A DNA stretch of 64,000 nucleotides from Candidatus Magasanikiibacteriota bacterium (GCA_018650645.1 JABIFP010000020.1:8385-72384); one strand, 5' to 3'; shown: positions 7,234 to 58,932, numbered from the stretch's first letter. The notes: a model not told the origin generated them from the letters alone. Numbers and translations are program-made.

Positions 7234-7234
7234 T

Positions 7235-18891: not shown

Positions 18892-19425
18892 TCAATGGCG
18901 GAGCCCCGAAATTGGCCGCATGGTCTTGTTCACCGGATCGATGATCCACCCCGTAGCAAAAGGGAGCGTCTCTTCGAACCGGATGTCTTGCGGCATATTC
19001 AAGGCACGAAGCATGTAAATGATGAGCCACGCGCCGATGCTTCCGTGCATCACGAGTACCCGCAGACACTGGTGGGACTGCGAATCAGCAACGAAGCTCT
19101 TTGCATAGCGCTTCAGCAACTCATTGCTGGGCCCATCACCCGATGTCTCGTTCAACTGAGCATCAGCTGAGCAAGCTGGAGTTCCCTCAAGCGCAGACGC
19201 AAGTGCGTTCCGGCTGTGGAGCACATGCGGTGTGCTTGCCGACATCAGCATGATCTCATTGCATCTGCCCAGCTGCTCTGAAATACATACCCCGAGATTG
19301 CGCATCTGCTCCTCCCCCGCAGGAAGCAGATGGCAATTAATGTCCCGCGCGCCATGCCGCACCACTATAATGCAGCCCTTCAGGCTTTGCCCAGCCTGAG
19401 TATTAATCTCCTGTTCAGCAACCAT
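18892..19425 (-). CDS. histidine phosphatase superfamily protein, SixA-like phosphohistidine phosphatase, in a GC-rich islet
   Basis: The RHG catalytic motif in IIVVRHGARD and a second His motif (VMHGS) late in the protein. GGGAGGG Shine-Dalgarno before the ATG. Confidence 0.55.
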   Translation of the reverse strand: MVAEQEINTQAGQSLKGCIIVVRHGARDINCHLLPAGEEQMRNLGVCISEQLGRCNEIMLMSASTPHVLHSRNALASALEGTPACSADAQLNETSGDGPSNELLKRYAKSFVADSQSHQCLRVLVMHGSIGAWLIIYMLRALNMPQDIRFEETLPFATGWIIDPVNKTMRPISGLRH

Positions 19426-27223: not shown

Positions 27224-30200
27224 TTATACAACAATATTCACAATTCTTCCTGGAATATATATCTGTTTCTTTGGCTCTTTCCCGTCAATAAAGCGTTGCA
27301 CATTCTCTTCTGCATGTGCAGCCTCAAATGCTTGCGCTTCTGTTGCATCAGCTGGCAACGTAATGGTTCCGCGCAATTTTCCGTTTACTTGTACAGCTAC
27401 GGTTAGCGTGTCTTCTACTAATTTTGATTCGTCATATGCTGGCCACTCTGCCAGTGTTGCAGACCCTTCTTTACCAAGCACTTCCCACAGCTCTTCTGCC
27501 ATATGCGGTGCATATGGTGCTAGGATACTTACAAATGTGGCAAAATCATCTTTTGCAATTTGCGTTTCTTTAGTAAATGCATTTGCACATTCCATCATTG
27601 CTGCAATTGCTGTGTTAAATTGCAACTCGGCAGTATCCCCTGTTACCTTTTTAATTGTCTTATGCAGTATACGATTCATTTCTTCTGTACCCGTTTCGGC
27701 AAGCTTTTCTTGCAGCTTCCACACTTTTTCTAGAAATCTTCTTACTCCTTTTACTCCACCGGTGTTCCAGGCTTTTGCCTGATCTAGTGGCCCCATGAAC
27801 ATTTCATACATGCGGACAGTATCTGCTCCGTATTCATTCACCACATCTGTTGGGTTAATCACATTCCCCCACCGCTTACTCATTTTTCTCCCATCTTCAC
27901 CGGAAATAAGTCCCTGATGACGGTTTACTTTAAACGGCTCATCAAAATCGATAAGTCCTTCATCAAAAAGCACCTTTGTGAAGAATCGTGAATACAGGAG
28001 ATGTCCGTTTACATGTTCTTCACCACCCAAGTAGAAATCGATTGGCATCCATTTTTTGAGCTGTTCTTTTGAAGCAAACGCCTCATCATTTTTTGGATCT
28101 AAGTATCTGAAGAAGTACCAGCTAGAACACATAAACGTGTCGAGTGTATCTACCTCTCTCTTCCATCCTTTTCCGTATTTTTCTTCTACCCCATCTTGGA
28201 ATGATGGTGAGTAGTTGAGTGGTGATTGTCCTGTTGGTTTGAAGTCAACATCGTCTGGAAGGATGACTGGGAGGTCTTGTATTGTTAGTGGCCGAAGCCC
28301 AGAAATGAGCGCTTCATCAAGGATGACTTGTTCCTCATTACCATCAAAATGTGGTTTATTTGATTGCGCATAGACCAGCCGAGCATCCAAATCTGTTGCC
28401 ATTTTTTCTAAGTGTTCTTTTTTTATAATTGGGAATGCATTATCTCCAATTATTGTAATTTCAGAACACAACGCTTTTACTTTTTCTGTATCAAACTCCC
28501 ACGTTGTACTGTCTTCTACAACTGTTCTTTTTTTGTCATTGAATTCTGGAACATATACGGGATCCACAAAACACAGCTTTGCAATATTTTTTCCAGATTG
28601 TTCTAACATTCTGAGAGCCACTGCTGCACCGTGACTTTGAGAAACAATAACCGTATTCTCATCAAGTGTAACTTGCTCTAGTGCAAATGTAGCCTGTTCA
28701 TCTGCTTTTGGTTTTTCTGTATTTGGAAGGTCAAATGCCTTGACTATATGACCCTGCAATTCAAGTTCTTGTTTCAACCATGGCCAGAAAATAGCTTCTT
28801 TACCAGAACCGTATCCATGCAAACATACATACAACCTTTTTTTGTTTTTTTCTTCTTCATTTGAAATAACTGGAATTGGCGCACCCCAAAATCGTTGTCT
28901 TGAAACTGACCAATCGCGGAGTTTGTATTGTGTTTTCTTTTTACCAATGTTTTTTTCTTCAAGCCATTCGAACATTCTTGTTTTTGCTTCTTGTGTTGTT
29001 AGATCATTGAGGAATTCCGAGTTTACGACAACACCTTCCCCACTATATGTGCTTGCTTCCACAAACATATTCCATGCAAGAGCGTGTGGATCCCAATTAA
29101 TATCTGTCGCAACCTTTTTCTTATCTTGCCAATACATTTCATGCCTGCCCTCATCAACTTCACATGAGACACGCTCCTCATCTGTCAGCTGTACATGAAA
29201 CCAAACAGAACCTGTTATTTGGTTCTTATTCTTAGTAATGCGATATCCCTGAGCATTAAAATGTTCAATAAATCGGGACCTAATGACATAATTCACATAT
29301 CCACTTTCCTCTTTTATTTCTTTTGTAAGAGCTTCTTCAATACTTTCACCTTCTTCTACACCCCCACCAACAAAATGTACACCGTCGACATCTCTCAAAA
29401 GTAGAAATTTTCCACCATCAGAATTTTCAATGATTACATCTATACATCTACGATTAAGTGTCTCGACTCCATCTTTCATCGCTTTCTTTCCTGTAAAAGC
29501 TACTGACGGAGCAACAACCTGTCTAATCTCCAACCCAAACTTCTTCGCAAACGCAAAGTCCCTCTCATCATGCGCCGGAACGGCCATGATTGCTCCGGTT
29601 CCGTATGTTGCAAGCACGTAATCAGCAATCCAAACGGGAACTTCTTCCCCATTAGCTGGATTTATCGCTTTTACTCCTTTTAGTTCTACTCCTGTTTTTT
29701 CTTGATCTACTTGTCTATCTAAATTCGATTTCTTTTCCGTTGCATGAACATATGCCTGCACTTCATCCCAATTTTTAATTGTTTCTTGCAAGCCCTGTAC
29801 CAAAGCATGTTCTGGCGCAAGTACCATATAGGTTGCTCCAAAAAGCGTATCTGGTCGTGTAGTAAATACGGTAATGTTTTCTTCAGTATCTTTCACGCTA
29901 AACTGCACCTCAGCTCCTTCGCTTCTTCCAATCCAATTTCTTTGCCGAGTAATTGTTTCCTGTGGCCAATCGACTTTATCAAGGTCGTCAATCAACCTAT
30001 CTGCGTAATCTGTTATTTTTAAATACCATTGCTCCATTTCTTTTTGCAAAACTGGAGTATCACAACGTTCACAAGCACCTTCTACAATTTGTGCATTCGC
30101 CAACACTGTTTTACAACTATCACACCAATTCACTGCCTGATTTTTTCTATACGCAAGTCCTCTTTTATACATCAAAAGGAAAAACCACTGTGTCCATTTA

Positions 30201-30601
30201 TAATAATCAGCATTATGTGATCCTACTTCTCTCTCCCAATCGACTGAAATACCGAGCTGCTTAATTTGACTGCGGAAGTTTTCAATTGCCTTATCTGTAT
30301 TAATCCGCGGATGCACATTTGTTTTAATCGCATAATTTTCTGCAGGGAGTCCAAAAGAATCCCACCCAATCGCTTGAAGTACCTTTTTTCCTGTCATTCT
30401 CTGATACCGCGCAAAAATATCACATGCGGTGTATACCTCTGCATGTCCAACATGAAGCCCACTCCCAGAAGGATACGGAAGTTGCGGCAGTATATACATC
30501 TTATTTTCTGACGTTGCGTCTACCGGTGTCTTATAGAGCTTCTGCTCTTCCCAACGTGCTTGCCACTTCTTTTCGATTTCCTTCGGATTATATTGACTCA
30601 T
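27224..30601 (-). CDS. leuS: leucyl-tRNA synthetase, 1125 aa, with two inserted extra domains (NUDIX and alpha/beta serine hydrolase)
   Basis: Full class-I LeuRS framework: HVGH, CP1 editing domain (TTRPDTLFGATY...AHDERDFAFAKKFGL), KMSKR and a C-terminal anticodon-binding region. About 330 extra residues make up two inserted modules. Confidence 0.9.
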   Translation of the reverse strand: MSQYNPKEIEKKWQARWEEQKLYKTPVDATSENKMYILPQLPYPSGSGLHVGHAEVYTACDIFARYQRMTGKKVLQAIGWDSFGLPAENYAIKTNVHPRINTDKAIENFRSQIKQLGISVDWEREVGSHNADYYKWTQWFFLLMYKRGLAYRKNQAVNWCDSCKTVLANAQIVEGACERCDTPVLQKEMEQWYLKITDYADRLIDDLDKVDWPQETITRQRNWIGRSEGAEVQFSVKDTEENITVFTTRPDTLFGATYMVLAPEHALVQGLQETIKNWDEVQAYVHATEKKSNLDRQVDQEKTGVELKGVKAINPANGEEVPVWIADYVLATYGTGAIMAVPAHDERDFAFAKKFGLEIRQVVAPSVAFTGKKAMKDGVETLNRRCIDVIIENSDGGKFLLLRDVDGVHFVGGGVEEGESIEEALTKEIKEESGYVNYVIRSRFIEHFNAQGYRITKNKNQITGSVWFHVQLTDEERVSCEVDEGRHEMYWQDKKKVATDINWDPHALAWNMFVEASTYSGEGVVVNSEFLNDLTTQEAKTRMFEWLEEKNIGKKKTQYKLRDWSVSRQRFWGAPIPVISNEEEKNKKRLYVCLHGYGSGKEAIFWPWLKQELELQGHIVKAFDLPNTEKPKADEQATFALEQVTLDENTVIVSQSHGAAVALRMLEQSGKNIAKLCFVDPVYVPEFNDKKRTVVEDSTTWEFDTEKVKALCSEITIIGDNAFPIIKKEHLEKMATDLDARLVYAQSNKPHFDGNEEQVILDEALISGLRPLTIQDLPVILPDDVDFKPTGQSPLNYSPSFQDGVEEKYGKGWKREVDTLDTFMCSSWYFFRYLDPKNDEAFASKEQLKKWMPIDFYLGGEEHVNGHLLYSRFFTKVLFDEGLIDFDEPFKVNRHQGLISGEDGRKMSKRWGNVINPTDVVNEYGADTVRMYEMFMGPLDQAKAWNTGGVKGVRRFLEKVWKLQEKLAETGTEEMNRILHKTIKKVTGDTAELQFNTAIAAMMECANAFTKETQIAKDDFATFVSILAPYAPHMAEELWEVLGKEGSATLAEWPAYDESKLVEDTLTVAVQVNGKLRGTITLPADATEAQAFEAAHAEENVQRFIDGKEPKKQIYIPGRIVNIVV
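28307..28849 (-). other. alpha/beta serine hydrolase (PF06821/YdeN/RBBP9-like) domain inserted in LeuRS (residues about 585-765)
   Basis: LYVCLHGYGSGKEAIFWPWLKQEL N-terminus typical of the Ser_hydrolase family, and a nucleophile elbow VSQSHGAA. Inserted after DWSVSRQRFWGAPIP and before the KMSKS half. Confidence 0.6.
29042..29479 (-). other. NUDIX hydrolase domain inserted in LeuRS (residues about 375-520)
   Basis: Nudix box GGGVEEGESIEEALTKEIKEESGY (Gx5Ex7[KR]ExxEExGY) located between the CP1 editing domain and the ...VVVNSEFLNDL segment. Confidence 0.7.
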
Positions 30602-30674
30602 ATCTTTGCGAATTGAATATAGGCTTATTTTAGCGGATTTGAGGGATTTTGCAACTTATCAACGTCCCTTGCCC

Positions 30675-30703
30675 TTGACAAAGAGCAAATAGTGTGCTAA
30701 TTT
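30675..30703 (+). promoter_or_regulatory. sigma70-like promoter TTGACA, 17-bp spacer, TAATTT at the left edge of a GC-rich islet
   Basis: Consensus -35 embedded in CCCTTGCCCTTGACA. Same spacing as the other islets. Confidence 0.4.
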
Positions 30704-30921
30704 CAACCGTCTGTGTGAACTGCAATAATCGCTATTGCGCTCACACAAACACCTGTATGATGATCATACCCCAACATTTATGGCCTGAATAGACTGCATG
30801 CAATATGTAATTTACTCTGACCATAAATGAAAGGTAAATTGATGCGACATACAATGGGCTAGAGCCCACACGATGAGATGAGGTGAACAGTCAGCCTCTC
30901 TCCTCCTCACCTGCAGTCTTT

Positions 30922-30975
30922 CGCCCGGTCATTCTGACCACGCGGCGAAGGCTGCGTGATTGGAATGACCGGGCG
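30922..30975 (+). repeat. perfect 13-bp inverted repeat (CGCCCGGTCATTC ... GAATGACCGGGCG) in the leader of the CSD-like gene
   Basis: Arms at 30922-30934 and 30963-30975 separated by 28 nt, just upstream of the Shine-Dalgarno sequence and ATG at 31004. Confidence 0.5.
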
Positions 30976-31003
30976 AAGGAACGCCCGGCGAACGGAGGAC
31001 GAG

Positions 31004-31576
31004 ATGGCTGAGAAGATGAACAGAGGATGGGTGACACGGTACAACCGGGAACGCCGATTCGGCTTCGCGGAGGTGCATGTGGATGGCGTTCGTGAAAGCG
31101 TGTTCCTTCACATGGACCAATGCCGGAAGCTGGCTGGCGTCCCGGAGAACCCGCACTTCACCCTCAGAGAAGACAACCAGGAGCCCAGGACCTGCGGGCG
31201 CGATTCCTACAGCATCCGTCTCCACTTGGAGCGGACGTACAAGGGGTTGCGTGCCAAGACGTGGGGCTACTGGTTCTGGTACCATGACCTGGCCAGCAAC
31301 GGCTTCTTCGACCCCGTCATCAAGATGCGGGTCGAGAGAAAGAGCTACGCGGACCGTGCGTTCCGCGTCCAGCAGCAGATGACGGTCATCTCCGTCCAGC
31401 TGGACATCGACACGCTCGTGGTGACCAAAGTTGAAGGCGGTGTAATCCGCCTGAAGCTGCCCAACCGCGTGCAGCAGGAGAGCCTGAGGCGCGAGGAGGG
31501 CTGCCACCCGTTGGCGTTCAGCTACGAAAACGTCGAAGCTGAGTGCGACGAGCGCATGGTCTTTTTGACCAGATAA
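31004..31576 (+). CDS. cold-shock-domain-like protein with C-terminal domain of unknown function, in a GC-rich islet
   Basis: GGAGGA Shine-Dalgarno sequence and ATG. The N-terminus GWVTRYNRERRFGFAEVHVDGVRESVFLHMDQ resembles a CSD (RNP1-like FGFA). The rest is unknown. About 60% GC. Confidence 0.5.
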   Translation: MAEKMNRGWVTRYNRERRFGFAEVHVDGVRESVFLHMDQCRKLAGVPENPHFTLREDNQEPRTCGRDSYSIRLHLERTYKGLRAKTWGYWFWYHDLASNGFFDPVIKMRVERKSYADRAFRVQQQMTVISVQLDIDTLVVTKVEGGVIRLKLPNRVQQESLRREEGCHPLAFSYENVEAECDERMVFLTR

Positions 31577-31880
31577 ACCTGAAAGGAGAACTTCCAGAGT
31601 GGCGATTCTGGACAGCGATTGACGGCCTGACTCCTCACCGAGTCAGGCTATAACGACATAGCGGCCTCAACACGCCGCACAACAGCCGCAAGGCTGAAGA
31701 GAGATGAAGATCTCCGGCAGACGCCAAGTCAGTCATGGGCAAACATGACAAGACGGCAGTCTCCAAAGACTAAAGGGAGGGATTGGGACCCGCACGCACC
31801 GAAGCCGCGCAAGCCGCTGACGTTCACGATGTGGTCCCAACCTCAATTAATTGCACAATGTGTTGTGCGCTTTGAGAGGA

Positions 31881-31915
31881 AAAAAAAAGAACCCGAATAA
31901 ACGGGTTCTTTTTTT
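31881..31915. terminator. bidirectional intrinsic terminator (A8, GAACCCG aataaa CGGGTTC, T7)
   Basis: Perfect 7-bp stem flanked by homopolymer runs between the CSD-like gene and gdh. Confidence 0.65.
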
Positions 31916-31920
31916 ACTGC

Positions 31921-33144
31921 TTACTTCATCGCCTCACTCACCCGCTCAATAGCTTTTACAAACGCAGCCGTTCGCATATCAATACTATGCTGTTCTTTTG
32001 TTTCCCAAATTTCTGTAAACGCACTCACCATAATTTTTTCTAGCTTGGTAAGAACATCTTCTTCACTCCAGTGCTCACCTTTCACATTCTGATCCCATTC
32101 AAAATAGCTTACTGTTACCCCACCAGCATTCGCTAGTACATCTGGTACAACGACAATTCCCTTTTCTTTCAAAATTTCATCTGCTTCTGGAGTAGTAGGC
32201 CCGTTTGCTAATTCTACAACCGCTTTTGCTTGTACACCTGCTGCATTTTCCGCAGTAATCACATTTTCTAATGCAGCTGGCACCAAAATGTCTACATCGA
32301 GATGCAAAATTTCATCATTTGATATTGCTTCTGTTCCAGGTGCGCCAGAAACACTCCTTGTCTCTGCTTTATGCGCTTCAACAGCGGCAACATCCAGCCC
32401 TTCCCGGTTCATTGCTCCTCCTTTTGAGTCTGTAACAGCAACAATTTTATATCCAAGCCCTGACAGAATTTTTGCCATGTGTGAACCAGCATTTCCAAAT
32501 CCTTGCACAGCCACTGTTGTCTCTTCTGGCTGCAATCCTAATTTTTTGGCTAATTCAATGGTGCAATACACACCACCTTGCGCAGTAGAGTAGCTTCGCG
32601 CTTCTGACCCGCCATTTTCAATCGATTTTCCTGTAATCACTCCCGGATCTTCATGCCCAACCAGCTTTTCATATTCGTCACGCATCCACCCCATAATTTG
32701 CGGTGTGGTGTATACATCTGGTGCTGGTACATCTTTATCAGAACCGATATTTCTCCAAACCCCTTGCACGTACCCACGCGAAAGTCGTTCTATCTCTCCC
32801 TCAGACAATTCCTTTGGATTTACAATTACTCCCCCTTTTCCACCACCCATTGGAATGTTCACAGCAGCACACTTTACCATCATCCAGAAAGAAAGCGCTT
32901 TCACTTCATCTTCACTCACGTTCCAGTGGTATCTGATCCCACCTTTATACACCCCAAGAGCGTTGTTAAATTGGCTTCTAAAGCCTTGAAACACCTTTAC
33001 TGACCCATCATCCATTGTGACTGGAATATTCACATGCACCACTCGGTTAGGATACCGAAGTGTTTCATGCATATTAGGATCTAATTTCATGACCGCCGCA
33101 GCTTTATCAAGCTGACTCATCGCGTTTGTATATGCAGAGCTCAT
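31921..33144 (-). CDS. gdhA: Glu/Leu/Phe/Val dehydrogenase family, glutamate dehydrogenase
   Basis: KGGIRYHW...NIPMGGGKGG active-site and GxGxxG NAD(P)-binding motifs. Confidence 0.9.
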   Translation of the reverse strand: MSSAYTNAMSQLDKAAAVMKLDPNMHETLRYPNRVVHVNIPVTMDDGSVKVFQGFRSQFNNALGVYKGGIRYHWNVSEDEVKALSFWMMVKCAAVNIPMGGGKGGVIVNPKELSEGEIERLSRGYVQGVWRNIGSDKDVPAPDVYTTPQIMGWMRDEYEKLVGHEDPGVITGKSIENGGSEARSYSTAQGGVYCTIELAKKLGLQPEETTVAVQGFGNAGSHMAKILSGLGYKIVAVTDSKGGAMNREGLDVAAVEAHKAETRSVSGAPGTEAISNDEILHLDVDILVPAALENVITAENAAGVQAKAVVELANGPTTPEADEILKEKGIVVVPDVLANAGGVTVSYFEWDQNVKGEHWSEEDVLTKLEKIMVSAFTEIWETKEQHSIDMRTAAFVKAIERVSEAMK

Positions 33145-33212
33145 ATATTTCGTATTAATCGTATTTATCTATATTGCTCCTCCTTTTTGGCTTCGTCAAC
33201 TGTGTACAACAC

Positions 33213-34562
33213 CTATGCTGCCAAATCTGTATCCGTAATACCAAGTCTACTTAGTAACGCGAGATGTTCTGGATTAGACGGGTCGTATTTACCCACACTA
33301 AACTGCATAGCAGCATCAGGATCTTCACCTACTAAATTCCAAATATCGATATTCCCTTCTCTATAAATCATATCTTTTGTAAAACACACTCCTGGAGTTT
33401 TGCCGTCCGTACCTCTAAATACTCGAACAGATCTATTATAGGCAAGCGTATCTGCCTTGCCCGATGCCGCAGCAGGATCCATTCCGCTCAATAATTTTTC
33501 TAAGTACATCTGGGCACGTATAATCTCATATACTTCTCTAAATCCTCGTTTCTGTCCATCAACACCTCTCGCGAGTGCAATGCCCAGATGTCCTGCCATT
33601 CCAGCAAAATCTTGGACATCTCCCGTTACCGCTTGCTCACGCATGGTAGCAACGCCCTCTTCCCCGCGCTCATATCTATCAAGTCCAAGCCCCAAAAGCT
33701 GTAACTTACTGTGTTCTCCATTCACACGCCGCGCAACGTGCGTTCCAATTTCATGTACAATAAGTTGCTGCAATTTCTTTGCGGTCATGCTTCTTCCCTC
33801 TGGAACAACTACTTTTTTTTCTTCTTGATTTACACTAATGCTCGTTTTGCCCGTGTCTACCACTTCCACAGTCCATCCGGTTAGCTCTAAAGAACTCATA
33901 GCCTCCCTAAATACCTCCTGAATTTGACCAGCCTCATACTGTTCTACCTTTGTATCAACAGCCGCCATAGCCTCTGAAAATGCATCCAGCGTTTGCACCT
34001 GCATAGCATCAACGATATTTTGTGTAGGAAGCGCAGCTACATCATGTGCTGAACCTTCCGGAAGAATCTCAATCAATTGCTGCGCTGCCGCAGCGATATC
34101 GGGGTTATCAGAAGAAAGTGCATCATGAGCTTTCTTACTTTCTGTTGCCAGCGTATATCCAAAAACCTGTGCAGAAGGTTCACCATATACAAAAGAGGTG
34201 TATTTCGAAAAGCGCTTCATATTCCCATTCAAGGCAGCCTTCATCATCCGTACTTCTGCAATTTTTTCGTTTATCTTCCATCTGTACGCTTGCTTTACAT
34301 CGGGATTTGGTTCTTTATTTAAAATATCTTTTTTCAATGCGAGTAGGTCATCTTCCTTAGTCTGTAAATCACCCATATTCAATTTAGGGTAATCAAGTGC
34401 GGGTGCATCAATTTCCCCATCCATAAATGCACGCTTCTGCTCTGCTCTGGCTTCTCTATCTCCAGAGAAATATTCGTATGCCTGAAAAGATCCAGCCCCC
34501 TCAAATCGACCATACCACTGTGCATCAAGTGGCTCTTGTTCTCTTCTTCTCATGCCTTCCAT
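33213..34562 (-). CDS. DUF1704/QEGLA-motif-like putative metallo-hydrolase
   Basis: HEIGTHVARR plus ...GEEGVATMREQ, resembling the flavohemoglobin-expression-modulating QEGLA family. The assignment is tentative. Confidence 0.35.
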   Translation of the reverse strand: MEGMRRREQEPLDAQWYGRFEGAGSFQAYEYFSGDREARAEQKRAFMDGEIDAPALDYPKLNMGDLQTKEDDLLALKKDILNKEPNPDVKQAYRWKINEKIAEVRMMKAALNGNMKRFSKYTSFVYGEPSAQVFGYTLATESKKAHDALSSDNPDIAAAAQQLIEILPEGSAHDVAALPTQNIVDAMQVQTLDAFSEAMAAVDTKVEQYEAGQIQEVFREAMSSLELTGWTVEVVDTGKTSISVNQEEKKVVVPEGRSMTAKKLQQLIVHEIGTHVARRVNGEHSKLQLLGLGLDRYERGEEGVATMREQAVTGDVQDFAGMAGHLGIALARGVDGQKRGFREVYEIIRAQMYLEKLLSGMDPAAASGKADTLAYNRSVRVFRGTDGKTPGVCFTKDMIYREGNIDIWNLVGEDPDAAMQFSVGKYDPSNPEHLALLSRLGITDTDLAA

Positions 34563-34611
34563 ATGTTTGCATTATATTACATCGATAATATTGTACCAAA
34601 ATTATCCGCAT

Positions 34612-34640
34612 ATCAAAAGAAGCGCATTCCTGCGCCTCTT
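34612..34640 (-). terminator. intrinsic terminator downstream of trxA
   Basis: Hairpin AGAAGCGCA ttcc TGCGCCTCT with a T-run on the minus strand. Confidence 0.45.
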
Positions 34641-34647
34641 CTTTCTG

Positions 34648-34980
34648 TTATGCACTATGTTTATCAAGCAATTCTTGAATTTTGTCTCTTGGTACGCCAC
34701 CAACAAGGGTGTCTACCACTTTTCCATCCTTGAACATAAGGAAGGTAGGAATACTCATAACCTGATATTCACCAGAAATTGCCTGGTTCTCATCAACATT
34801 CACTTTTCCAATTTTGATTTTAGTTGCGTCGGCAGCTTCTGCAAGCTCGTCTACAATTGGTCCCATCATTTGACAAGGTCCACACCATGGAGCCCAAAAG
34901 TCTACTAATACTGGAACATCTGATTCTAATACTTCTGATTTGAAGTTTGCTTCTGTAAATGCCTGTGCCATACAAAACAA
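34648..34980 (-). CDS. trxA: thioredoxin
   Basis: The WCGPC active site. Length is 110 aa. Confidence 0.9.
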   Translation of the reverse strand: MFCMAQAFTEANFKSEVLESDVPVLVDFWAPWCGPCQMMGPIVDELAEAADATKIKIGKVNVDENQAISGEYQVMSIPTFLMFKDGKVVDTLVGGVPRDKIQELLDKHSA

Positions 34981-35042
34981 GTTATTTTCTAAGTGTCTAT
35001 ATAGTAAATGATTCCCTAATGGGAATCAATACTTGATAAGTT

Positions 35043-37094
35043 TTACTCAGGAACTACAGCCGGTTTTGGTTCTTTCTTTACATCAGAGAGTTTTCTGATT
35101 CGTTTCTCTTCTGTATACGCTTCTAATACATCACCAATTTCAACTTTTACTTTCCCAACAAACTTCATTCCACCTTCACTTCCCGCAGGAATCTTTTTCA
35201 GAAGCTGCTGACCGATTTGTACGGTTTCAGCTTCACCAATTCCCTCTTCTTCTCCTTCTCGTTTTACACGAATTTTACATCCCTTAAGAATTTTTCCTTC
35301 AGTAACAAGTCCACCAATAATCATCCATTTCTTTTCTGTACGGAAAATTCCTTTCACTTCCATCTTTCCAATTTCTTCAATAATAATTTCAAATTCAAGA
35401 AGCGCTTCTAGTTTTTCGTTCACCCAATCGAGCAAATGATAGATAACTTCAAACTTTTCAAAAACCATGTTCTTTTCTCTCATCAACACTTCTGCACTTG
35501 AAGAAGGCTTCACATTGAAACAGAGAATTGTTGCATTTGTTGTTTCTGCCTTTGCTACATCATCTTCTGTCGCATTTCCAAGTCCCTTACCTACAATCCG
35601 TACACCCACATCTTCGTGATGAATTTGATTGAGTGACGCAATGATCGCTTCAAGAGAACCGAGTACATCCGCTTTCAAAATAATGTTGAGTGTTTTTTTC
35701 TTATTTTCTCCATTATCATCAAGTTCAACCATGTGTACTTTTTCAGCACCAGTTTGTTCTGATCGTTTTTGTTTCACATCAATTTTATGCGCCGTTTTTG
35801 CTTGTGAAAGATTCAAAATGTCTCCAACTGATGGTGCGACTTTAAATCCAATAATTTGCGCAGGTGTTGAAGGACCAGCTTCTGGCATTTCAACTCCATG
35901 AAAATCTCTCATGGCACGTACTTTTCCGTAAATTTCATTTCCAAGTACAAGTGGTTCACCTTTTTTGAGTGTTCCACCCTGAATAAGTACAGTAGCTACA
36001 GGACCGATATGTTTATCTACATGAGACTCAATAACAGTTCCTACCGCAGGGACATTCGGATCAGCCATAATGCCATCCTCGTTCATATCTGCAACAAGGA
36101 GAAGCACATCAAGGAGTTTATCAATATGCAATTGTTCCTTTGCTGAAATTTCTACCATTGGTACATCACCACCCCACGCTTCAGGAATCAATCCTTTCTT
36201 TGAAAGCTCAGTCATTGTTTTTTGTACATCTGCAGATTCCTTATCAATCTTATTGATGGCAACAACAATTGGCATACCAACTGCCTTCATAATTTTAATT
36301 ACTTCTTCAGTTTGCGGTTTTACCCCATCGTCTGCTGCAACTACCAAAATAGCAATATCAGCAACTTTTGCACCACGACTTCTCATTACGGTAAACGCTT
36401 GATGCCCCGGAGTATCAATGAATGTGAGTGCTCGTTCACTTTTTGTTTTTGGATCGCGCCAAATTGTTTGGTACGCACCAATGTGCTGCGTAATTCCACC
36501 AGATTCGTCGTCAACAATATTGGTTTGTCTAATGGTATCGAGTAATTTTGTTTTTCCATGATCTACATGTCCCATCACAACAATAACCGGTGCACGTTTA
36601 ATTGCGTCCTCAGATTTTTGTGCATCTTCAATTGCTGAAGAAAGCTCAAGCTCTTTTTCCATGTCTACTTGATCTTCTTCTTTCTGTGATACTGAAAATC
36701 CAAGATCCTCTGCCAAAATAGCAGCCGTATCATAATCGACATCTTGGTTCTGATTTGCAAGTACTCCAGCTTTCATGAGCTCCATGATAACCTGCGTAAC
36801 AGGCATGCTAAGCATTTCTGCCAAATCTCTTACAGAGATAATTGATGGCAATTCAACTGCAAGACCACTCTCTTTTCTCATTTCTCTGTCCTTTCGTTTT
36901 TGCTCTTCTAATTCTTTCAATCGCTTGCTTTCTTGGTCTCTCTTAATCTTAGGCCACATCCGCATGATCTTTTGCGCAACCTTATTATCCACCTTAATCG
37001 CTTTTGCACCTACGTCAAAACCATACTCAGGCAAGATTCGCAGGAGTTCCTTTGGGTGGACACGTAATCTACGTGCTAAGGCGGTTACATTCAT
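35043..37094 (-). CDS. infB: translation initiation factor IF-2
   Basis: G-domain GHVDHGKT, DTPGH, NKID and the C-terminal beta-barrels. Length is 683 aa. Confidence 0.95.
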   Translation of the reverse strand: MNVTALARRLRVHPKELLRILPEYGFDVGAKAIKVDNKVAQKIMRMWPKIKRDQESKRLKELEEQKRKDREMRKESGLAVELPSIISVRDLAEMLSMPVTQVIMELMKAGVLANQNQDVDYDTAAILAEDLGFSVSQKEEDQVDMEKELELSSAIEDAQKSEDAIKRAPVIVVMGHVDHGKTKLLDTIRQTNIVDDESGGITQHIGAYQTIWRDPKTKSERALTFIDTPGHQAFTVMRSRGAKVADIAILVVAADDGVKPQTEEVIKIMKAVGMPIVVAINKIDKESADVQKTMTELSKKGLIPEAWGGDVPMVEISAKEQLHIDKLLDVLLLVADMNEDGIMADPNVPAVGTVIESHVDKHIGPVATVLIQGGTLKKGEPLVLGNEIYGKVRAMRDFHGVEMPEAGPSTPAQIIGFKVAPSVGDILNLSQAKTAHKIDVKQKRSEQTGAEKVHMVELDDNGENKKKTLNIILKADVLGSLEAIIASLNQIHHEDVGVRIVGKGLGNATEDDVAKAETTNATILCFNVKPSSSAEVLMREKNMVFEKFEVIYHLLDWVNEKLEALLEFEIIIEEIGKMEVKGIFRTEKKWMIIGGLVTEGKILKGCKIRVKREGEEEGIGEAETVQIGQQLLKKIPAGSEGGMKFVGKVKVEIGDVLEAYTEEKRIRKLSDVKKEPKPAVVPE

Positions 37095-37124
37095 GGGAGT
37101 AATCGGAGAAATATTAATGTCGGC

Positions 37125-37153
37125 AGTATAGGCAAAAAAGGGAAAAAAGTCAA
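37125..37153 (-). promoter_or_regulatory. sigma70-like promoter for infB (TTGACT, 17-bp spacer, TATACT)
   Basis: Read on the minus strand, TTGACT tttttcccttttttgcc TATACT lies about 30 nt upstream of the infB ATG. Confidence 0.45.
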
Positions 37154-37266
37154 TGGTATTGCTGCCCTAGGAGCCAGAATAAGACCCGTCGGGTGAATCG
37201 CTTGATAAAATCCCCTATTAGGTTCACACTATATGTATGAGTCCTTCTACTCATTAATAATGGTAT

Positions 37267-37716
37267 ATGCAGTATAAACACACACAAATTGGCCATCTTA
37301 TGATTGGTGTCCTTTTGGCTTTGATAGCTTATTTTTCTGTGCTGGTCTATGTTTCTGAATACGATTTGGTGGTAATAATCAGCATGCTTGCGGTCATTGC
37401 TATTCTTTCATCGTTCTTATCACTGACTGTGCAAATAAGCCAGGGCATCCTCAAAATCCGATTTGGCTATGGCATTTTTTCAAAAACATTCAATATTCAA
37501 GACATAGCTTCAGCGCGCGTTGCTGAACATCGCTGGTATTACGGCTGGGGTATTAAATATTGGTGGTGGCCACGCACATGGATTTATTCTGTTTCTGGCA
37601 TGCAATCGATTGAGATAATTTTACAAAACGGCAAACGCTATAGGATTGGTACGGATGAGCCGGAGAAAGTTATTGAGGCGTTGAGGAAAGAACATGTGAA
37701 CATTGTAGTAGAGTAA
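37267..37716 (+). CDS. hypothetical membrane protein (2 TM helices plus a soluble C-terminal domain)
   Basis: Two N-terminal TM helices and a WYYGWGIKYWWWPRTW aromatic segment. No known motif. Confidence 0.45.
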   Translation: MQYKHTQIGHLMIGVLLALIAYFSVLVYVSEYDLVVIISMLAVIAILSSFLSLTVQISQGILKIRFGYGIFSKTFNIQDIASARVAEHRWYYGWGIKYWWWPRTWIYSVSGMQSIEIILQNGKRYRIGTDEPEKVIEALRKEHVNIVVE

Positions 37717-37770
37717 AAAAACACCAAGAGTAAAAGGGCGTTTTATGATATAATATAGCCGAATGCTATT

Positions 37771-40446
37771 TTGATATTTATTATGCTCAAAAAGATCTCT
37801 TTTTTCATACTCTCATTCATTGGGTGTATGATCCTGATAACACCAACGTTTGCGGCGTCTACTTATTTTTCTGATGAATTCGATACCGTTGCGCATGCAG
37901 AACTAAGCACTCGCGTTCCAGACACAGGAACAAGTTGGTCACAACTTATTGATAATGGACGAGACCTCTATGTGCGTTCTTATAATGACCATGTTACTAC
38001 TGAATCGAATGGAAGCAATGTTGGGACACTCTATCAAGCAAATGGAACATATGACAGTGCGGATTACGAAATTCTTGCACGTATTGCTTTTTCTGGTGGA
38101 GACAGTAACTACACCCGTTCATTAGCTGTGCGTATTCAAGATGCTAGCAACATGTATTTGCTTAGAGCAGGATCTGGAGCATCCGGACTTGCCATTTATA
38201 AACGAACAGCAGGTACTTGGAGTTTACTCGGATCTACCAGCTATACGCCAACAGGTGATCTCTCTGTTCCATATAATGATGCCGGAGATATTATTGGACT
38301 GCGTGCTGAAGGAAATGACCTTAGCGCACTTGTAAATGGTACCGTGCAGCTTACGGTTACCGATTCAGATCACACGCTTGCAGGTTCTGCTGGTATTGGT
38401 ACGGGATATGTAAATATCTCAACAGATGATTCTGGAACAGGAGTTGGTATTGATAATGTAATTGTTCAAGATTTAGTTGATGACACAGCGCCAACCGTCT
38501 CATATTATAACCCAGCTGATAATGCTACAGGTGTTTCCGCAACATCTACCTTTGAAATTTCCTTTGATGAAGCGATTGTTACCAGTACTGGAAATATCTA
38601 TCTCTACAAAACAAGTGACGACTCGCTTATTGAAACGATTGATATTGAAAGCGCGCTTGTTACTGCTTCAAGCACTACAGCACTTGTCATTGATCCTGCT
38701 GCTGTGCTGATTAGTCAAACTGAATATTACTTTTTTATTGATGCAACGGCAGTAGATGATACCTCTGCCAATAGCTACGCTGGAATAACAGTAAGCACCA
38801 CATGGAGCTTTACTACAGCCGACACCACTGACCCAACACTGTTATATGTTAATCCGGCAGATAACGCAACGGGAGTTGGTGTTACCTCAACGTTTGAAAT
38901 TGCCTTTGATGAAGCAATCGCCACAAGTACCGGGAACATCTACATATATAAGACAAACGATAACTCACTTATTGAAACAATTGATATTGAGGGAGCACTT
39001 GTTACCGCTTCTAGCACAAACGCTCTCATCATTGACCCCGTAGCGACATTAGACAGCAATACAGAATATTATTTCCTTATTGATATCACTGCAATTGATG
39101 ACAGCGCTGGAAACAGTTATGCCGGAATTGCATTAAGCACTGCATGGAGCTTTACTACAACCGATACCGCGGCACCAACTATTTCTGGTGCATCTCCTAC
39201 CGGCGAGCAAGATGTTGGCACAGCCACCGTTACTGTTTCTGTTACAACAGACGAAGCTGCAACGTGCAAATATGCCGCCAGCGCAGGAGCTGCATTTGCT
39301 GCTAAAACAGTCTTCTCTTCTACCGGAGCAACAAGCCACACCACATCTGTATCTACTGAGGATGACACAAGCTACTCCTATTATGTGAGTTGCCAAGACG
39401 GTTCAACAAATGAGAGTACAGAAACAACTATTACTTTTTCCATTGCGGCTCCAGTAACTGGTGGCGGTGGATCTGCCCCTGCACCGGCTCCTTCTGTTGG
39501 TGTGGGTACGAGTGACGCATTTATTCCAATGGGGACTACAAAAGATATTGGACCTGTATCAGTGGAACCACTCAATATTCTAACGCATATCAACTCCCCT
39601 GCTGAATTTGAAGCCCCGGTAAGTGGTAGTGGTGCAATGCAACCTCATAGTTTTGAAATAACCGATTTTGATCTATTTGAAAACATCATTACATTAAAAA
39701 TTCAATCTGAACCGCAGTTTGTTACACTTTCTTTAAATGAAACGGCATCTGTTGATCTTGATGGAGATGGTATTGCTGATGTGTCACTTACATTTGAAGA
39801 TGTGGTAACAAATCGAGCTGAAATTACATTGCAAGTGCTTACCGAAGAATCAGAACTAACCATACCCGTTGAAGAGCTACCAAGTACACCGGTATCCCCT
39901 ACTCCAGTTGTCCCAAAAGAGCCAGCGGTATTTACTTTTACCAGAAACCTCTCACTTGGCATGCAAGGAACTGATGTACAAGAGCTGCAAAAGTATTTGA
40001 ATACGAAGGGATTCGCCGTTGCACAGGCAGGATACGGATCGGCTGGAAATGAAACAACCTACTTTGGTAATGCTACCAAATCGGCTCTTATCAAATATCA
40101 AACGGAGTACCAATTGCCAGCATACGGATACTTTGGCGATTTAACGCGCACGTTTATCATTAGTGGTGACGAACCACTCGCGATAAAGCAAACTGTACAA
40201 CCCAAAACGACCTGGTTGTTTACAAAAGATTTACGCCTTGGAGATCAAGATAGTGAAGTGCAATTACTGCAGCAATATTTAAATGCTCATGACTATATTG
40301 TCGCTGATAGTGGATACGGCTCGCCAGGAAACGAGACAACCTATTTCGGTGCAGCAACGCAAGCAGCTCTTATCAAGTATCAAGAGCAATACCGTTTGCC
40401 AGCATATGGATACTTTGGGCCGCTGACAAGATCGAGTGTAAAGTAA
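37771..40446 (+). CDS. large secreted cell-surface protein with tandem Ig-like (BIG-type) domains and two C-terminal peptidoglycan-binding domains
   Basis: Signal peptide, two full plus one partial repeat of about 113 aa (PTVSYYNPADNATGV...WSFTT), then two PG_binding_1-like modules (LSLGMQGTDVQELQKYLN... and LRLGDQDSEVQLLQQYLN...). Confidence 0.65.
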   Translation: MIFIMLKKISFFILSFIGCMILITPTFAASTYFSDEFDTVAHAELSTRVPDTGTSWSQLIDNGRDLYVRSYNDHVTTESNGSNVGTLYQANGTYDSADYEILARIAFSGGDSNYTRSLAVRIQDASNMYLLRAGSGASGLAIYKRTAGTWSLLGSTSYTPTGDLSVPYNDAGDIIGLRAEGNDLSALVNGTVQLTVTDSDHTLAGSAGIGTGYVNISTDDSGTGVGIDNVIVQDLVDDTAPTVSYYNPADNATGVSATSTFEISFDEAIVTSTGNIYLYKTSDDSLIETIDIESALVTASSTTALVIDPAAVLISQTEYYFFIDATAVDDTSANSYAGITVSTTWSFTTADTTDPTLLYVNPADNATGVGVTSTFEIAFDEAIATSTGNIYIYKTNDNSLIETIDIEGALVTASSTNALIIDPVATLDSNTEYYFLIDITAIDDSAGNSYAGIALSTAWSFTTTDTAAPTISGASPTGEQDVGTATVTVSVTTDEAATCKYAASAGAAFAAKTVFSSTGATSHTTSVSTEDDTSYSYYVSCQDGSTNESTETTITFSIAAPVTGGGGSAPAPAPSVGVGTSDAFIPMGTTKDIGPVSVEPLNILTHINSPAEFEAPVSGSGAMQPHSFEITDFDLFENIITLKIQSEPQFVTLSLNETASVDLDGDGIADVSLTFEDVVTNRAEITLQVLTEESELTIPVEELPSTPVSPTPVVPKEPAVFTFTRNLSLGMQGTDVQELQKYLNTKGFAVAQAGYGSAGNETTYFGNATKSALIKYQTEYQLPAYGYFGDLTRTFIISGDEPLAIKQTVQPKTTWLFTKDLRLGDQDSEVQLLQQYLNAHDYIVADSGYGSPGNETTYFGAATQAALIKYQEQYRLPAYGYFGPLTRSSVK
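38482..39162 (+). repeat. tandem repeat of about 340 bp, two copies (38482-38820 and 38821-39162), about 85% identical, encoding the Ig-like domains
   Basis: Direct nucleotide and protein repetition within the surface-protein gene. A third partial unit starts at 39163. Confidence 0.7.
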
Positions 40447-40484
40447 CAAAAAAAGACACTGCGCATGGCAGTGTCTTTTTTTTT
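40447..40484. terminator. bidirectional intrinsic terminator (A7, AGACACTGC gcatg GCAGTGTCT, T8)
   Basis: Perfect 9-bp stem between convergent genes. The T-run overlaps the ppa stop. Confidence 0.65.
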
Positions 40485-41001
40485 AATGTTTTTCAGTATA
40501 TAGCGCAACCGATTTATCATACGCTGCCATAGCTGCGGCAGCATCTTCAAATCCATTCACTTCCACCTCTTTGTTTTGCAGTTTCTTGTAATTTTCAAAG
40601 TAATGAGAGATGACTTTCAGTGTATGCGGATTAACATCTGATAAATCCTGCACACCATTCCATCGTGGATCTTCAACTGGCACACCAATTACTTTGTCGT
40701 CAGATTCACCGTCATCAATCATACGCATTACACCAACCGGCCGAACAGCTACCAAAATTCCTGGTAAAAGCGGCTCAGTCGTTAACACAATCATATCAAG
40801 TGCATCACCATCATCCCACAGTGTTTGCGGTACAAATCCATAATCAAACGGATATGGCTGCCCAGTGTGAGCAACTCTATCTAACGCAATCATCCCTGTT
40901 TCTTTATCAATTTCATATTTATTGAGCGATCCTTTTGGAATCTCAATAATCGTATTCATTTTTTCTCTAGTCCCTCTTGGAACATCATGCCACAAGTTCA
41001 T
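40483..41001 (-). CDS. ppa: inorganic pyrophosphatase
   Basis: YPFDYGFVPQTLWDDGDALDMIVL family-I PPase signature (DxDxD). Confidence 0.9.
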   Translation of the reverse strand: MNLWHDVPRGTREKMNTIIEIPKGSLNKYEIDKETGMIALDRVAHTGQPYPFDYGFVPQTLWDDGDALDMIVLTTEPLLPGILVAVRPVGVMRMIDDGESDDKVIGVPVEDPRWNGVQDLSDVNPHTLKVISHYFENYKKLQNKEVEVNGFEDAAAAMAAYDKSVALYTEKH

Positions 41002-41064
41002 AGTAATGGTATTAATTCAATGTACTTAGAATAGCAAAATGATGTAAAAAAGCAACCCTAGCCC

Positions 41065-41093
41065 TTGACTCTTTCCCTTATTTTTGTTATTAA
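41065..41093 (+). promoter_or_regulatory. sigma70-like promoter TTGACT, 17-bp spacer, TATTAA at the left edge of the nhaA islet
   Basis: -35 embedded in CCCTAGCCCTTGACT, nearly identical to the motif at 30666-30680. Confidence 0.35.
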
Positions 41094-41224
41094 AGGTGGA
41101 CGACAGGCCTGGAGGATCTGTTCGATCTTTACAGGCAAGTATACAATTTTTCGGAATGCGCTCGTGTTCCAAACAACAAGTACGTTACAAACTGCGTACA
41201 GGAATGAAAGAGAAGGTGCGATAA

Positions 41225-42514
41225 GTGCTGAAACTGCTAGATTCAACCTTGGGGCTGCTTGGAATAAAGCGGCTCAACAAGATGTTCGCTCACAGCGGGA
41301 TCTTCATGCTCGTCGGATTGGCGTGCACACAAGTTCTCCGCTACACCGCGCCGGAAATGCTCGATGGGATTCTACAAGCAGAGTTCCTGAGCAATCACTA
41401 CTTCGGCCACGATCACGGAGATGGACACTACGTCCTCTCGCTGCCGTTCCTCGTGAACGACTTCTTCATTGCCTTCTTCTTTGGCATTGCCTTCAAGGAG
41501 GTGAAAGAAGCGATCTTCCTGCCGGGCGGCGCCCTCCAGGGTAAAAAGGCATACGTGCCGATCTCTGGAACGCTTGGTGGTGTTCTTGGACCTGCGGGAG
41601 TCTTCCTGCTGGCCGTGGCACTCCTTGGGAAGTGGACGTTGATGTGGCGAGGGTTCGCCATCCCCATGGCGACGGACATCGCGTTCACCTACCTGTTCGC
41701 GAAAATGATCTTCCCGGACGTTCAGCAAGCTGACGGCACAATGAAGAAGCATCGCATGGTCTCATTCGGGCTGGCCCTGGCCATCCTGGATGACCTGATC
41801 GGTATGGCGATGATCGCCTTCTTCTACAACGACGGCATCGACATGTTCTGGCTAGGACTCTTCGGGGCGACGATCCCCCTCGGGATCCTGATGAACCGAC
41901 TGAAGGTGCAAGGCTGGGGCTGGTACATTGTGCTCCTCGGCCTGCCCGGAATCTACTTCTTGTTCCACTCGGGTTTGCACCCGTCGCTGGGACTCGCTGT
42001 AGCGGTTTTCTGCATGCCCACTAAGGGGCGTGACGAAGACGGGATAGTGGCAGAAGGGACAGCGGAAAACGTGCACCATTCGGCTACGGCTGACAGGTAT
42101 GAACATCAGACGGCCGTGCCCGTGGAGTACATCCTTGGCGCGTTCGCCTTTGTGAATGCCGGTGTCAACATGGTGCAGGGCTTCAACACCCTCACCTTCG
42201 TGGTGCTTGGCTCGCTGATTATTGGCAAGGGCCTGTTCATCTGGGCCTTCACACGCATTGCGCAGAGGTTCTGGGAGTTCGAGGCAAGCAGCAGCGAAGT
42301 CATGACCCTGGCACTCGCGGCGGGAATTGGCTTCACGGTCAGTCTCTTCGTTGCCAGCTTGGCATACGCCCCTGGGGCTCTCCAAGATGGCGCAAAGATC
42401 GGTGCAGCGCTCTCGCTCATTGCGGGGCCCATGGCGATGGTCTACGCACGCATGTTCCATGTTGGACGATGGAGTCGGGAAATCGATTCCACGCGGCGCG
42501 CTGTGCTCCAGTAG
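41225..42514 (+). CDS. nhaA: Na+/H+ antiporter NhaA, in a GC-rich islet (about 60% GC)
   Basis: WRGFAIPMATDIAF and LAILDDLIGMAMIAFFY match the NhaA TM4/TM5 signature regions. The start may be the GTG at 41225 or the ATG at 41282. Confidence 0.75.
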   Translation: MLKLLDSTLGLLGIKRLNKMFAHSGIFMLVGLACTQVLRYTAPEMLDGILQAEFLSNHYFGHDHGDGHYVLSLPFLVNDFFIAFFFGIAFKEVKEAIFLPGGALQGKKAYVPISGTLGGVLGPAGVFLLAVALLGKWTLMWRGFAIPMATDIAFTYLFAKMIFPDVQQADGTMKKHRMVSFGLALAILDDLIGMAMIAFFYNDGIDMFWLGLFGATIPLGILMNRLKVQGWGWYIVLLGLPGIYFLFHSGLHPSLGLAVAVFCMPTKGRDEDGIVAEGTAENVHHSATADRYEHQTAVPVEYILGAFAFVNAGVNMVQGFNTLTFVVLGSLIIGKGLFIWAFTRIAQRFWEFEASSSEVMTLALAAGIGFTVSLFVASLAYAPGALQDGAKIGAALSLIAGPMAMVYARMFHVGRWSREIDSTRRAVLQ

Positions 42515-42622
42515 CATTCGCTAGCAGTCGCATCATCCAGCACACGGTGTTAGAGCTACCTACGAGTGCTCTCACCACTCCGCTTCAGCGGGGTGGGTTG
42601 GGAAGAGTGTATACTTGCCCAG

Positions 42623-42676
42623 CAAACAGTTATTTGAAGTAATGTTCAGAACACTGTTTGCTGATTACTTCAAAAT
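42623..42676 (+). repeat. two interleaved inverted repeats (A1 caaacagtt, B1 atttgaagtaat, A2 acactgtttg, B2 attacttcaaaat)
   Basis: The arms occur in the order A1-B1-A2-B2, which gives pseudoknot-like or alternative-hairpin potential. They lie at the junction between the GC-rich nhaA islet and the AT-rich DUF805 gene. Confidence 0.4.
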
Positions 42677-42746
42677 TTATTCGATGATATCTGCGTAGTA
42701 TGCTATACTTTGCGCATATTATAGTTATTATTTTTCACCACACTCT

Positions 42747-43885: not shown

Positions 43886-43892
43886 TTTGCGT

Positions 43893-43959
43893 GTACTCCG
43901 CTGATACGCAATAGCAAACCGATGTGCCTCATCTCTGAGCGCTATACGCTCTTTTTTAT
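43893..43959 (+). repeat. 67-bp direct-repeat copy A, a duplicate of the uvrC 3' end
   Basis: gtactccgctgatacgcaatagcaaaccgatgtgc...tctgagcgctata.gctcttttttat matches 46998-47064 (the real uvrC C-terminal codons) with about 3 mismatches. Confidence 0.7.
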
Positions 43960-58615: not shown

Positions 58616-58711
58616 GTATCTATAATAGCATAAAATGAATATTTATTTCTTACCCTTGACATGAGCACTTTTTTTTGGTACATTCTTTTGTCCGCACTAG
58701 AGCGGGCAAGG

Positions 58712-58866
58712 AGAATGCTGATGGGTATCCGATACCCGATGTGTAAGTTCTGTTTTAGCACCACCGGCAAGCATGCGGACGATTGTCCCTTGAAGCAACG
58801 GAAGCCGTCGATCTCTCTGATCCTGACGGTTGGTGCCATTAGTCTTGTCGTGATCAAGCTCGCATA
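58712..58866 (+). CDS. candidate 50-aa zinc-ribbon plus single-TM mini-protein in a GC-rich islet
   Basis: AAGGAG Shine-Dalgarno sequence, ATG, CxxC...HxxxC N-terminus, then a C-terminal TM helix, followed by a strong terminator. Confidence 0.25.
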
Positions 58867-58932
58867 GCGCTAGCTGACACGCACCTTGCACAACTCCGTA
58901 GCCGACTGCGAACACCGCGGTCGGCATTGATT

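Follow-up and report, generated by a model that had tools for sequence, protein, structure and literature searches.

The window examined in this study, a 64,000-nt stretch from a Candidatus Magasanikiibacteriota bacterium (GCA_018650645.1 JABIFP010000020.1:8385-72384), carries two GC-rich islets, each of which holds a single gene and has a nearly identical 14-mer at its left edge. Islet 1 encodes a cold-shock-domain (CSD)-like protein and lies between leuS and gdh; islet 2 encodes the Na+/H+ antiporter NhaA and lies next to ppa. Host DNA is about 42% GC, with a third-codon-position GC content (GC3) near 0.3 in leuS, gdh, infB, ppa and truB, and both islets are about 60% GC. The features of the two loci were as follows.

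30627 to 30654, - strand: divergent leuS promoter, TTGCAA-16-TAAAAT, kept in the closest relative, with homology stopping at its -35.
30655 to 31908, + strand: islet 1 variable segment, from the leuS promoter to the gdh stop codon, comprising promoter, leader, coding sequence, GC-rich 3' region and bidirectional terminator (31882-31915).
30666 to 30679, + strand: motif copy 1, CCCTTGCCCTTGAC, a tandem CCCTTG-CCCTTG and then AC, 11 nt past the end of homology with the closest relative.
30675 to 30703, + strand: putative islet 1 promoter, with -35 TTGACA (30675-30680), a 17-nt spacer, TG (30695-30696) and -10 TAATTT (30698-30703).
30708 to 31003, + strand: islet 1 leader, highly structured (minimum free energy, -138 kcal/mol; z = -10.3).
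30827 to 30855: second, weak promoter-like site of islet 1, ATGAAA-17-TACAAT, ending at the start of the GC-rich DNA.
30891 to 31011: terminal leader hairpin of islet 1, about 120 nt (-86 kcal/mol; z = -9.6).
31004 to 31576, + strand: islet 1 cargo coding sequence, 190 aa, with ATG at 31004, a GGAGGA ribosome-binding site and a GC3 of 0.83.
41019 to 41048, - strand: divergent ppa promoter, TTTACA-18-TACATT, with 7 nt between it and the insertion junction.
41056 to 42696, + strand: islet 2, an insertion of 1.64 kb at the ppa/DUF805 site that is empty in the closest relative; left junction GCAA/CCCT, right junction about 42696/TATGCTATAC (±3 nt).
41056 to 41069, + strand: motif copy 2, CCCTAGCCCTTGAC, the initial 14 bases of the islet 2 insertion.
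41065 to 41093, + strand: putative islet 2 promoter, with -35 TTGACT (41065-41070), a 17-nt spacer, TG (41085-41086) and -10 TATTAA (41088-41093).
41225 to 42514, + strand: nhaA (Pfam Na_H_antiport_1), GC3 of 0.74, starting at GTG 41225 (after AGAAGGTG) or ATG 41306.

Both copies of the motif lie on the + strand, with the consensus CCCT(T/A)GCCCTTGAC. The copies were identical at 13 of 14 positions, or at 13 of 15 when compared as 15-mers (mismatches at positions 5 and 15); the first-pass annotation had given the identity as 14 of 15, which was not reproduced, and its positions and -35 content for the motif were correct. Exact matches to CCCTNGCCCTTGAC numbered two in the window and still two in 82 kb of genome, that is, the window plus 9 kb of the same genome added on each side. 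The 14-mer is made up of a generic -35 part, TTGAC (5 bases), and an upstream 9-mer, CCCTNGCCC, of which eight of nine bases are common to both copies. As TTGAC is expected at any promoter in this genome, only the match in the upstream 9-mer needs explaining. A BLAST comparison between the islets indicated that they have nothing in common beyond the 14-mer, and the 17-nt spacers of the two promoters agreed at 4 of 17 positions (hand count).

Promoters of this genome clearly follow the form TTGACA-17-TAnnnT (TATACT, TATAAT, TAGTAT and others), which was found ahead of host genes, tRNAs and every GC islet. The proposal that the 14-mer holds the -35 hexamer of a plausible promoter was borne out; a 17-nt spacer and a -10-like hexamer follow it at both sites, and both of these hexamers are weak. 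The -35 matched TTGACA at 6/6 positions in islet 1 and at 5/6 in islet 2. At the -10, TAATTT of islet 1 had a 3/6 match to TATAAT, keeping A2 and T6, and TATTAA of islet 2 had a 4/6 match in which the final T (T6) was missing; neither promoter passed a standard sigma-70 consensus scan. Both carry an extended -10 (TGc at 30695-30697 and TGt at 41085-41087), in which a single base separates the TG from the -10. Of 29 candidate promoters, 8 had a TG at this position, as did 11 of the 101 TTGAC sites. These arrangements resemble the sigma-70 extended -10 promoters (TGnTATAAT) of E. coli and Bacillus in having TTGAC(A/T), a 17-nt spacer, a TG and a weak -10 compensated by other elements, and differ from them in the lack of the conserved final T in the islet 2 -10 and in the C-rich tract directly upstream of the -35. 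We know of no promoter element that corresponds to such a tract. The promoter segments of both islets are AT-rich like the host, unlike the GC-rich cargo, and each islet stands back-to-back with a housekeeping promoter (leuS for islet 1, ppa for islet 2). Transcription is predicted to start near 30710 in islet 1 and, where the GC-rich DNA begins, near 41100 in islet 2. A literature search for promoter motifs in the candidate phyla radiation (CPR) found nothing.

Comparison with related genomes was utilized to define the islets. Relatives were retrieved via IF-2, many of whose closest homologues carry the name Candidatus Magasanikbacteria in NCBI; an IF-2 search of reference genomes yielded no relative. 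The two intergenic slots were occupied as follows (IF-2 identity to the window in brackets; coordinates are those of the ppa slot).

Window: NhaA upstream of ppa (41056-42696); CSD-like protein between gdh and leuS.
L012 (85%, the closest relative): ppa slot empty, with DUF805 next to ppa; GC-rich Sigma70_r2 gene between gdh and leuS.
L013 (67%): a different GC-rich NhaA, 37% identical to that of the window, upstream of ppa (7514-8758); a 48-aa open reading frame (ORF) between gdh and leuS.
L014 (66%): both slots empty.
L213 (68%): both slots empty.
L212 (69%): GC-rich CitMHS_2 and two ORFs upstream of ppa (4302-7764); synteny differs at gdh-leuS.
L214 (70%): GC-rich CitMHS-like gene upstream of ppa (7003-8412); the contig ends at gdh-leuS.

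At islet 2, the window reads AAAAAAGCAA/CCCTAGCCCTTGAC and L012 reads AAAAAAGCAA/TATTCTTTATACTT in an exact alignment, and L012 resumes at about 42697 of the window; islet 2 therefore extends from 41056 to about 42696 and begins with the 14-nt motif. At islet 1, homology with L012 stops at the leuS -35 (TTGCAA, 30649-30654) and the motif begins 11 nt later, an end that may be the mere limit of constraint on the leuS promoter. The description of the motif as a left boundary thus held by comparison with L012 at both loci, but not by composition at islet 1, where the GC rise lies about 190 nt downstream of the motif. Both islets have the character of horizontal islets, with a GC3 of 0.83 and 0.74 vs about 0.3 and with slots that are empty or otherwise filled in L012 and other relatives. 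Dinucleotide-signature distances between islets 1 and 2 were too noisy, on such short genes, for a call on a common donor.

Horizontal acquisition of individual genes by Patescibacteria has been documented in aquifer genomes (PMC12455944), in a study that does not describe boundary motifs. The islets resemble those acquisitions in being compositionally deviant genes, missing in the closest relative, amid conserved housekeeping genes of a CPR genome; they differ in being single genes with their own promoter and terminator, much more GC-rich than the host and recurring at the same intergenic slots. A likeness was also apparent to the replacement-type flexible genomic islands of marine bacterial pangenomes, where the conserved flanking genes stay the same from one related genome to the next and the cargo between them changes, but here the units are single genes of 1-2 kb with strongly foreign GC content. 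Across the genomes listed above, the ppa slot contained different GC-rich ion-transporter genes in 4 of 7 (NhaA twice, CitMHS_2 and a CitMHS-like gene) and was empty in 3; in marine Magasanikbacteria, foreign transporter genes land here repeatedly.

On balance, we consider it somewhat probable that these are two ordinary promoters on horizontally acquired islets and that the shared upstream 9-mer is most likely a coincidence. The 14-mer would then be the upstream half of two separate, ordinary extended -10 promoters of sigma-70 type, each situated at the left edge of what would be an independently acquired GC-rich single-gene insertion in the AT-rich genome of a marine Magasanikbacteria (CPR) organism. 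Each promoter would transcribe its own cargo, the CSD protein behind a leader that would occlude the ribosome-binding site in one case and the NhaA antiporter in the other. The remaining nine bases, CCCTNGCCC (8/9), would require no separate mechanism and would represent a coincidence noticed for its position. Both islet promoters probably fire and the 9-mer is probably functionless.

Two observations on base composition and frequency bear on this reading. The first-pass annotation had suggested an UP element, the binding site of the C-terminal domain of the RNA polymerase alpha subunit, which is A/T-rich and located upstream of the -35 at about -40 to -60. The motif shares the position directly upstream of the -35, but its stretch is 9 nt long and C-rich, with 7/9 and 6/9 C/G in CCCTTGCCC and CCCTAGCCC, and the genome's other strong promoters have AT-rich flanks; the suggestion was therefore dropped. 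As bare sequence identity, moreover, the motif match is unremarkable. BLAST of islet 1 against islet 2 gave the 14-mer an E value of 0.83, 1,219 direct 14-mer pairs with at most one mismatch were present in the window, and a perfect 9/9 upstream match was found between two TTGAC sites in unrelated coding regions of the same window. The 8-mer CCCTTGAC occurred three times in 82 kb vs about 1.7 times expected from base composition (hand calculation).

The motif followed by N18-TA gave 27 matches in IMG/VR phage contigs (23 distinct, 5 with a good -10), and three composition-matched scrambled 9-mers gave 20, 20 and 7 matches (13, 14 and 7 distinct; 9, 4 and 1 with a good -10). Sites in AT-rich phages at which the 14-mer resembled a perfect promoter were rejected, as the scrambled controls had an equal or higher promoter-like, intergenic fraction; the promoter look of the phage matches arose because the search was anchored on TTGAC-N18-TA. 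In a metagenome scan, among the 119 matches listed (a sample that did not include this organism's copies), no AT-to-GC islet junction like those of the window was detected.

The motif was not a general property of such islets. At least eight further GC-rich units were present in the 82 kb, each with its own TTGAC promoter and several with TGn, and none had CCCTNGCCC; their upstream flanks were 'ataTTGACA'-like. The first-pass annotation had itself named absence from other islet boundaries as the finding that would count against a common boundary motif, and within 82 kb this absence was observed at 8 other islets. The further units, and the one promoter that had CCCTTGAC alone in common with the islets, were as follows.

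About -6700 to -4300: at least two GC-rich units.
6254 to 7174: GC-rich unit.
18892 to 19425: GC-rich unit.
58653 to 58684, + strand: third promoter, TTGACA (58656-58661), 17-nt spacer, TGg and TACATT, driving the GC-rich ORF at 58721-58867.
58721 to 58867: GC-rich unit, an ORF of 48 aa.
61009 to 61362: GC-rich unit.
69851 to 72125: GC-rich unit of three genes.

GC-rich, foreign-looking units make up about one tenth of the 82 kb. The genes at -6700 to -4300 (15700-18000 of contig L015) and at 69851-72125 (1107-3381 of contig L016) had a GC3 of 0.71-0.84 and mostly no Pfam match, with one DUF488. Two adjacent GC islets at 960-1110 and 1850-1940 of L016 (about 72120-72270 and 71290-71380 of the window) had a common terminator-to-promoter junction, GGCTGTTTTTTTnTTTGGnGG(A)TATTGA, with 25 of 28 positions identical, and this pair was the sole other instance of short-sequence sharing between islet promoter regions.

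Several observations weigh against coincidence as the explanation of the 9-mer. The identity is sharply bounded, at 13/14 within and random outside, and so resembles a discrete protein-binding site. All three occurrences of CCCTTGAC in 82 kb fall at islet promoters, and the islet 2 insertion opens precisely with the motif. When only GC-islet promoters were compared, the P for the 8/9 match was about 2-4e-4 for a single pair; over all 45 pairings of the ten islet promoters, the P for at least one such match was about 0.009. It was also the best in-register match among 190 promoter-region pairs. The evidence also spans just 82 kb of genome. Some discount has to be applied to the islet-promoter P values because the reader who made the first-pass annotation could have spotted many kinds of coincidence. 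The verdict on chance is borderline, with the match nominally unusual among islet promoters.

One alternative is a shared operator, in which CCCTNGCCC, overlapping the -35, would be an operator or activator site through which one factor co-regulates both stress-type genes, the site having been selected independently twice. The sharp edges of the identity, set in unrelated flanks, and the nominal significance of the 8/9 match both fit such a site. The motif lies at about -44 to -31, a region bound by class II activators and by many repressors, and both cargoes, a CSD protein and an Na+/H+ antiporter, are plausibly stress-related. We nevertheless regard co-regulation as unlikely: the 82 kb contain just two copies, the 9-mer lacks palindromic symmetry, and the 6-nt period of its CCCTTG repeat fits no known binding geometry. 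There was no candidate regulator nearby, the window's only response regulator having a receiver-domain match alone, and there was no conservation to draw on, the relatives being without both islets and the organism's own contigs being 100% identical. Ten independent metagenome contigs were 100% identical to the window, and hence same-species contigs offered no usable population variation. The gene in the leuS-gdh slot of L012 (6723-7211) encodes a 162-aa protein (53% GC) with a Sigma70_r2 domain, an extracytoplasmic function (ECF)-type sigma factor, and acquired cargo in this slot can therefore itself be a transcription factor.

The unusual tandem CCCTTG/CCCTWG-CCCTTG, present in both copies where the third islet promoter has a single CCCTTGAC, raised the further prospect that both promoter edges derive from one short piece, copied by repair or template switching or brought by a shared earlier carrier, and that the piece amounts to only a -35 region. 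The AT-rich promoter segments, like the host and not like the GC-rich cargo, are consistent with copying, and the junction shared by the adjacent islets at about 71.3-72.2 kb (25/28 by hand count) suggests that short junction modules can recur. Simple descent is hard to reconcile with the adjoining spacer and -10, which are unrelated (4/17 spacer positions), unless only 14 nt were copied, and module sharing was no general property of islet promoters. We therefore hold a copied piece to be decidedly unlikely, a little more so than co-regulation.

The first-pass annotation had also invoked a common insertion or recombination site. In this case the 14-mer would be the terminal recognition or recombination site of a common insertion mechanism, for example one inserting promoter-bearing single-gene cassettes beside housekeeping promoters. 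The placement of the motif would fit such a mechanism, as it forms the first 14 nt of islet 2 and, at islet 1, starts no more than 11 nt from where the variable segment begins on its left; the host-side homology ends in GCAA at both sites, and relatives carry a variety of GC-rich cargoes in these intergenic slots, which have been filled repeatedly. However, the GCAA 'junction' of islet 1 may only mark the end of the leuS -35 constraint, and other expected marks were missing. The empty site of L012 reads GCAA/TATTC and is without CCCTNGCCC, the right ends of islets 1 and 2 had no direct or inverted copy of the motif, and no target-site duplication was detected at the islet junctions. A Pfam scan of 54 window ORFs detected no integrase, recombinase or transposase domain. 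The motif was likewise not found at the 8 other islets or with the different cargoes that occupy the same slots in relatives. A common insertion mechanism was accordingly set aside as very improbable. The only repeat bracketing nhaA was an internal 11-nt inverted repeat unrelated to the motif.

Known mobile systems were compared in the same way. Integron cassettes (attC/attI) are, like the islets, single-gene units at a recurrent location, but they usually lack a promoter, have attC at their 3' end and stand beside an integrase gene, and none of this is present at the islets. An att site of an integrative element was rejected since the core was neither in the empty target nor at both ends of the insert and no cognate integrase was nearby, and a transposon or insertion sequence terminal repeat was rejected on the lack of a terminal inverted copy and of a target-site duplication. 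A DNA uptake sequence shows strong genome-wide over-representation, at roughly one per kb, and was ruled out by the two copies of the motif in 82 kb. A likeness between the right boundaries, TTT(A/G)CTG(C/A)TTACTTCA at 31913 and 42657, was rejected, as it overlaps the host gdh stop codon at islet 1 and is part of a local hairpin at islet 2.

The sole integrase seen belonged to a strain variant and lies beside the tRNA at 9150, far from both islets. This variant, from another sample (L015 1-2042), was 99.9% identical to the window until just past the tRNA at 9150-9223, where an element with a tyrosine integrase and an HTH_17 protein follows; in the window, unrelated genes, including an MFS transporter and a glycosyl-hydrolase-like protein, replace this element in the 9150-9291 region.

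The cargo of islet 1 was characterized at the levels of both RNA and protein. The terminal leader hairpin pairs CCUCCUC (anti-Shine-Dalgarno) with the start region of the CSD gene, namely its ribosome-binding site GGAGGA and its AUG, and on the folding model the mRNA should be untranslatable as transcribed unless it is melted or processed. In Rfam searches only tRNAs reached the gathering threshold, and nothing credible was obtained at permissive thresholds in either islet or near 58.6 kb. The protein has a divergent N-terminal cold-shock domain (RNP1-like FGFA and RNP2-like VF(L/F)H) and a C-terminal part to which no function is assigned. An exhaustive HMMER search detected 11 distant relatives of 158-227 aa, in the alignment of which K-x-FGFA and VFFH are conserved. 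The family profile matched cold-shock proteins (CspB; E = 9e-7) along the first half of the domain and, weakly, in a further stretch at the C-terminal strand, and 10 of 11 family members matched Pfam CSD (best E, 7.9e-6), with the window protein alone below threshold (E = 0.088). The earlier 'CSD-like' label was thus upheld. An AlphaFold model was unusable (mean predicted local distance difference test score, 31.5). Apart from the identical protein, an indexed protein search retrieved no homologue, so that the protein appears ORFan-like, and tblastn against plasmids and phages gave no match.

Automatic gene calling was misled at this locus. An antisense 192-aa ORF (30929-31507, - strand), whose GC1 of 0.82 is really the antisense GC3, was called in 3 metagenome contigs covering islet 1, and only the NCBI annotation (locus tag HOE53_02490, filed under Candidatus Magasanikbacteria) has the correct 190-aa protein. 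Homologues of GC-rich islet genes may therefore be systematically missing from protein databases.

The best non-self homologues of the islet 2 NhaA were about 40% identical (none above about 42%) and scattered among Acidobacteriota, Myxococcota, SAR202 and other contigs. Two of the closest were on long contigs, both without the motif, and one of these (L210) was a GC-rich nhaA within an AT-rich genome. The perfect 11-nt inverted repeat that brackets nhaA, GGCAAGTATAC (41134-41144) and GTATACTTGCC (42609-42619), extends to 17 nt at 88% overall and could reflect base pairing of the 5' untranslated region with the 3' one, or could be due to chance.

Three further features were observed elsewhere in the window. 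The LeuRS encoded at 27224-30601 (- strand) has 1,125 aa, and its editing domain is followed by an inserted NUDIX domain (aa 384-497); this insertion was present in L012 and L013 (944 and 966 aa) and missing in L014 and L213 (806 and 802 aa). The 3' end of a tRNA gene at 59168-59240 (- strand) was duplicated about 200 nt away together with the upstream terminator hairpin (58927-58985 and 59127-59186; gagccatcatcgggaatt at 58968 and 59168), which we take to be a classic scar of site-specific integration, and this duplication abuts the small GC-rich ORF at 58721-58867. A 68-nt direct repeat that includes a terminator hairpin (43892-43959 and 46997-47064; 65 of 68 positions identical) flanks a 916-aa ORF (44176-46926) that has no Pfam match and is located between truB and uvrC, which are adjacent in L013 and separated only by small ORFs in L212 and L214. 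This unit has the look of an AT-rich insertion of its own, the target of which was duplicated.

Overall, the motif amounts to a small curiosity and not to a new signal of mobile DNA or of regulation. A functional 9-mer would provide a rare handle on the integration or control of foreign genes in an uncultured, genome-reduced CPR bacterium, which the evidence does not support, and we consider it quite improbable that the 14-mer is either the promoter-bearing left end of an undescribed class of single-gene cassettes in CPR bacteria or the operator of a small regulon of acquired stress genes. What the analysis usefully yields is a clear account of two ordinary single-gene islets, both horizontally acquired, and of the promoters that go with them. 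For the biology of these bacteria, there is more potential than in the motif itself in the refilled slots, the GC-rich ion transporters beside ppa, the hairpin-locked CSD gene (-86 kcal/mol) and the NUDIX domain in LeuRS.

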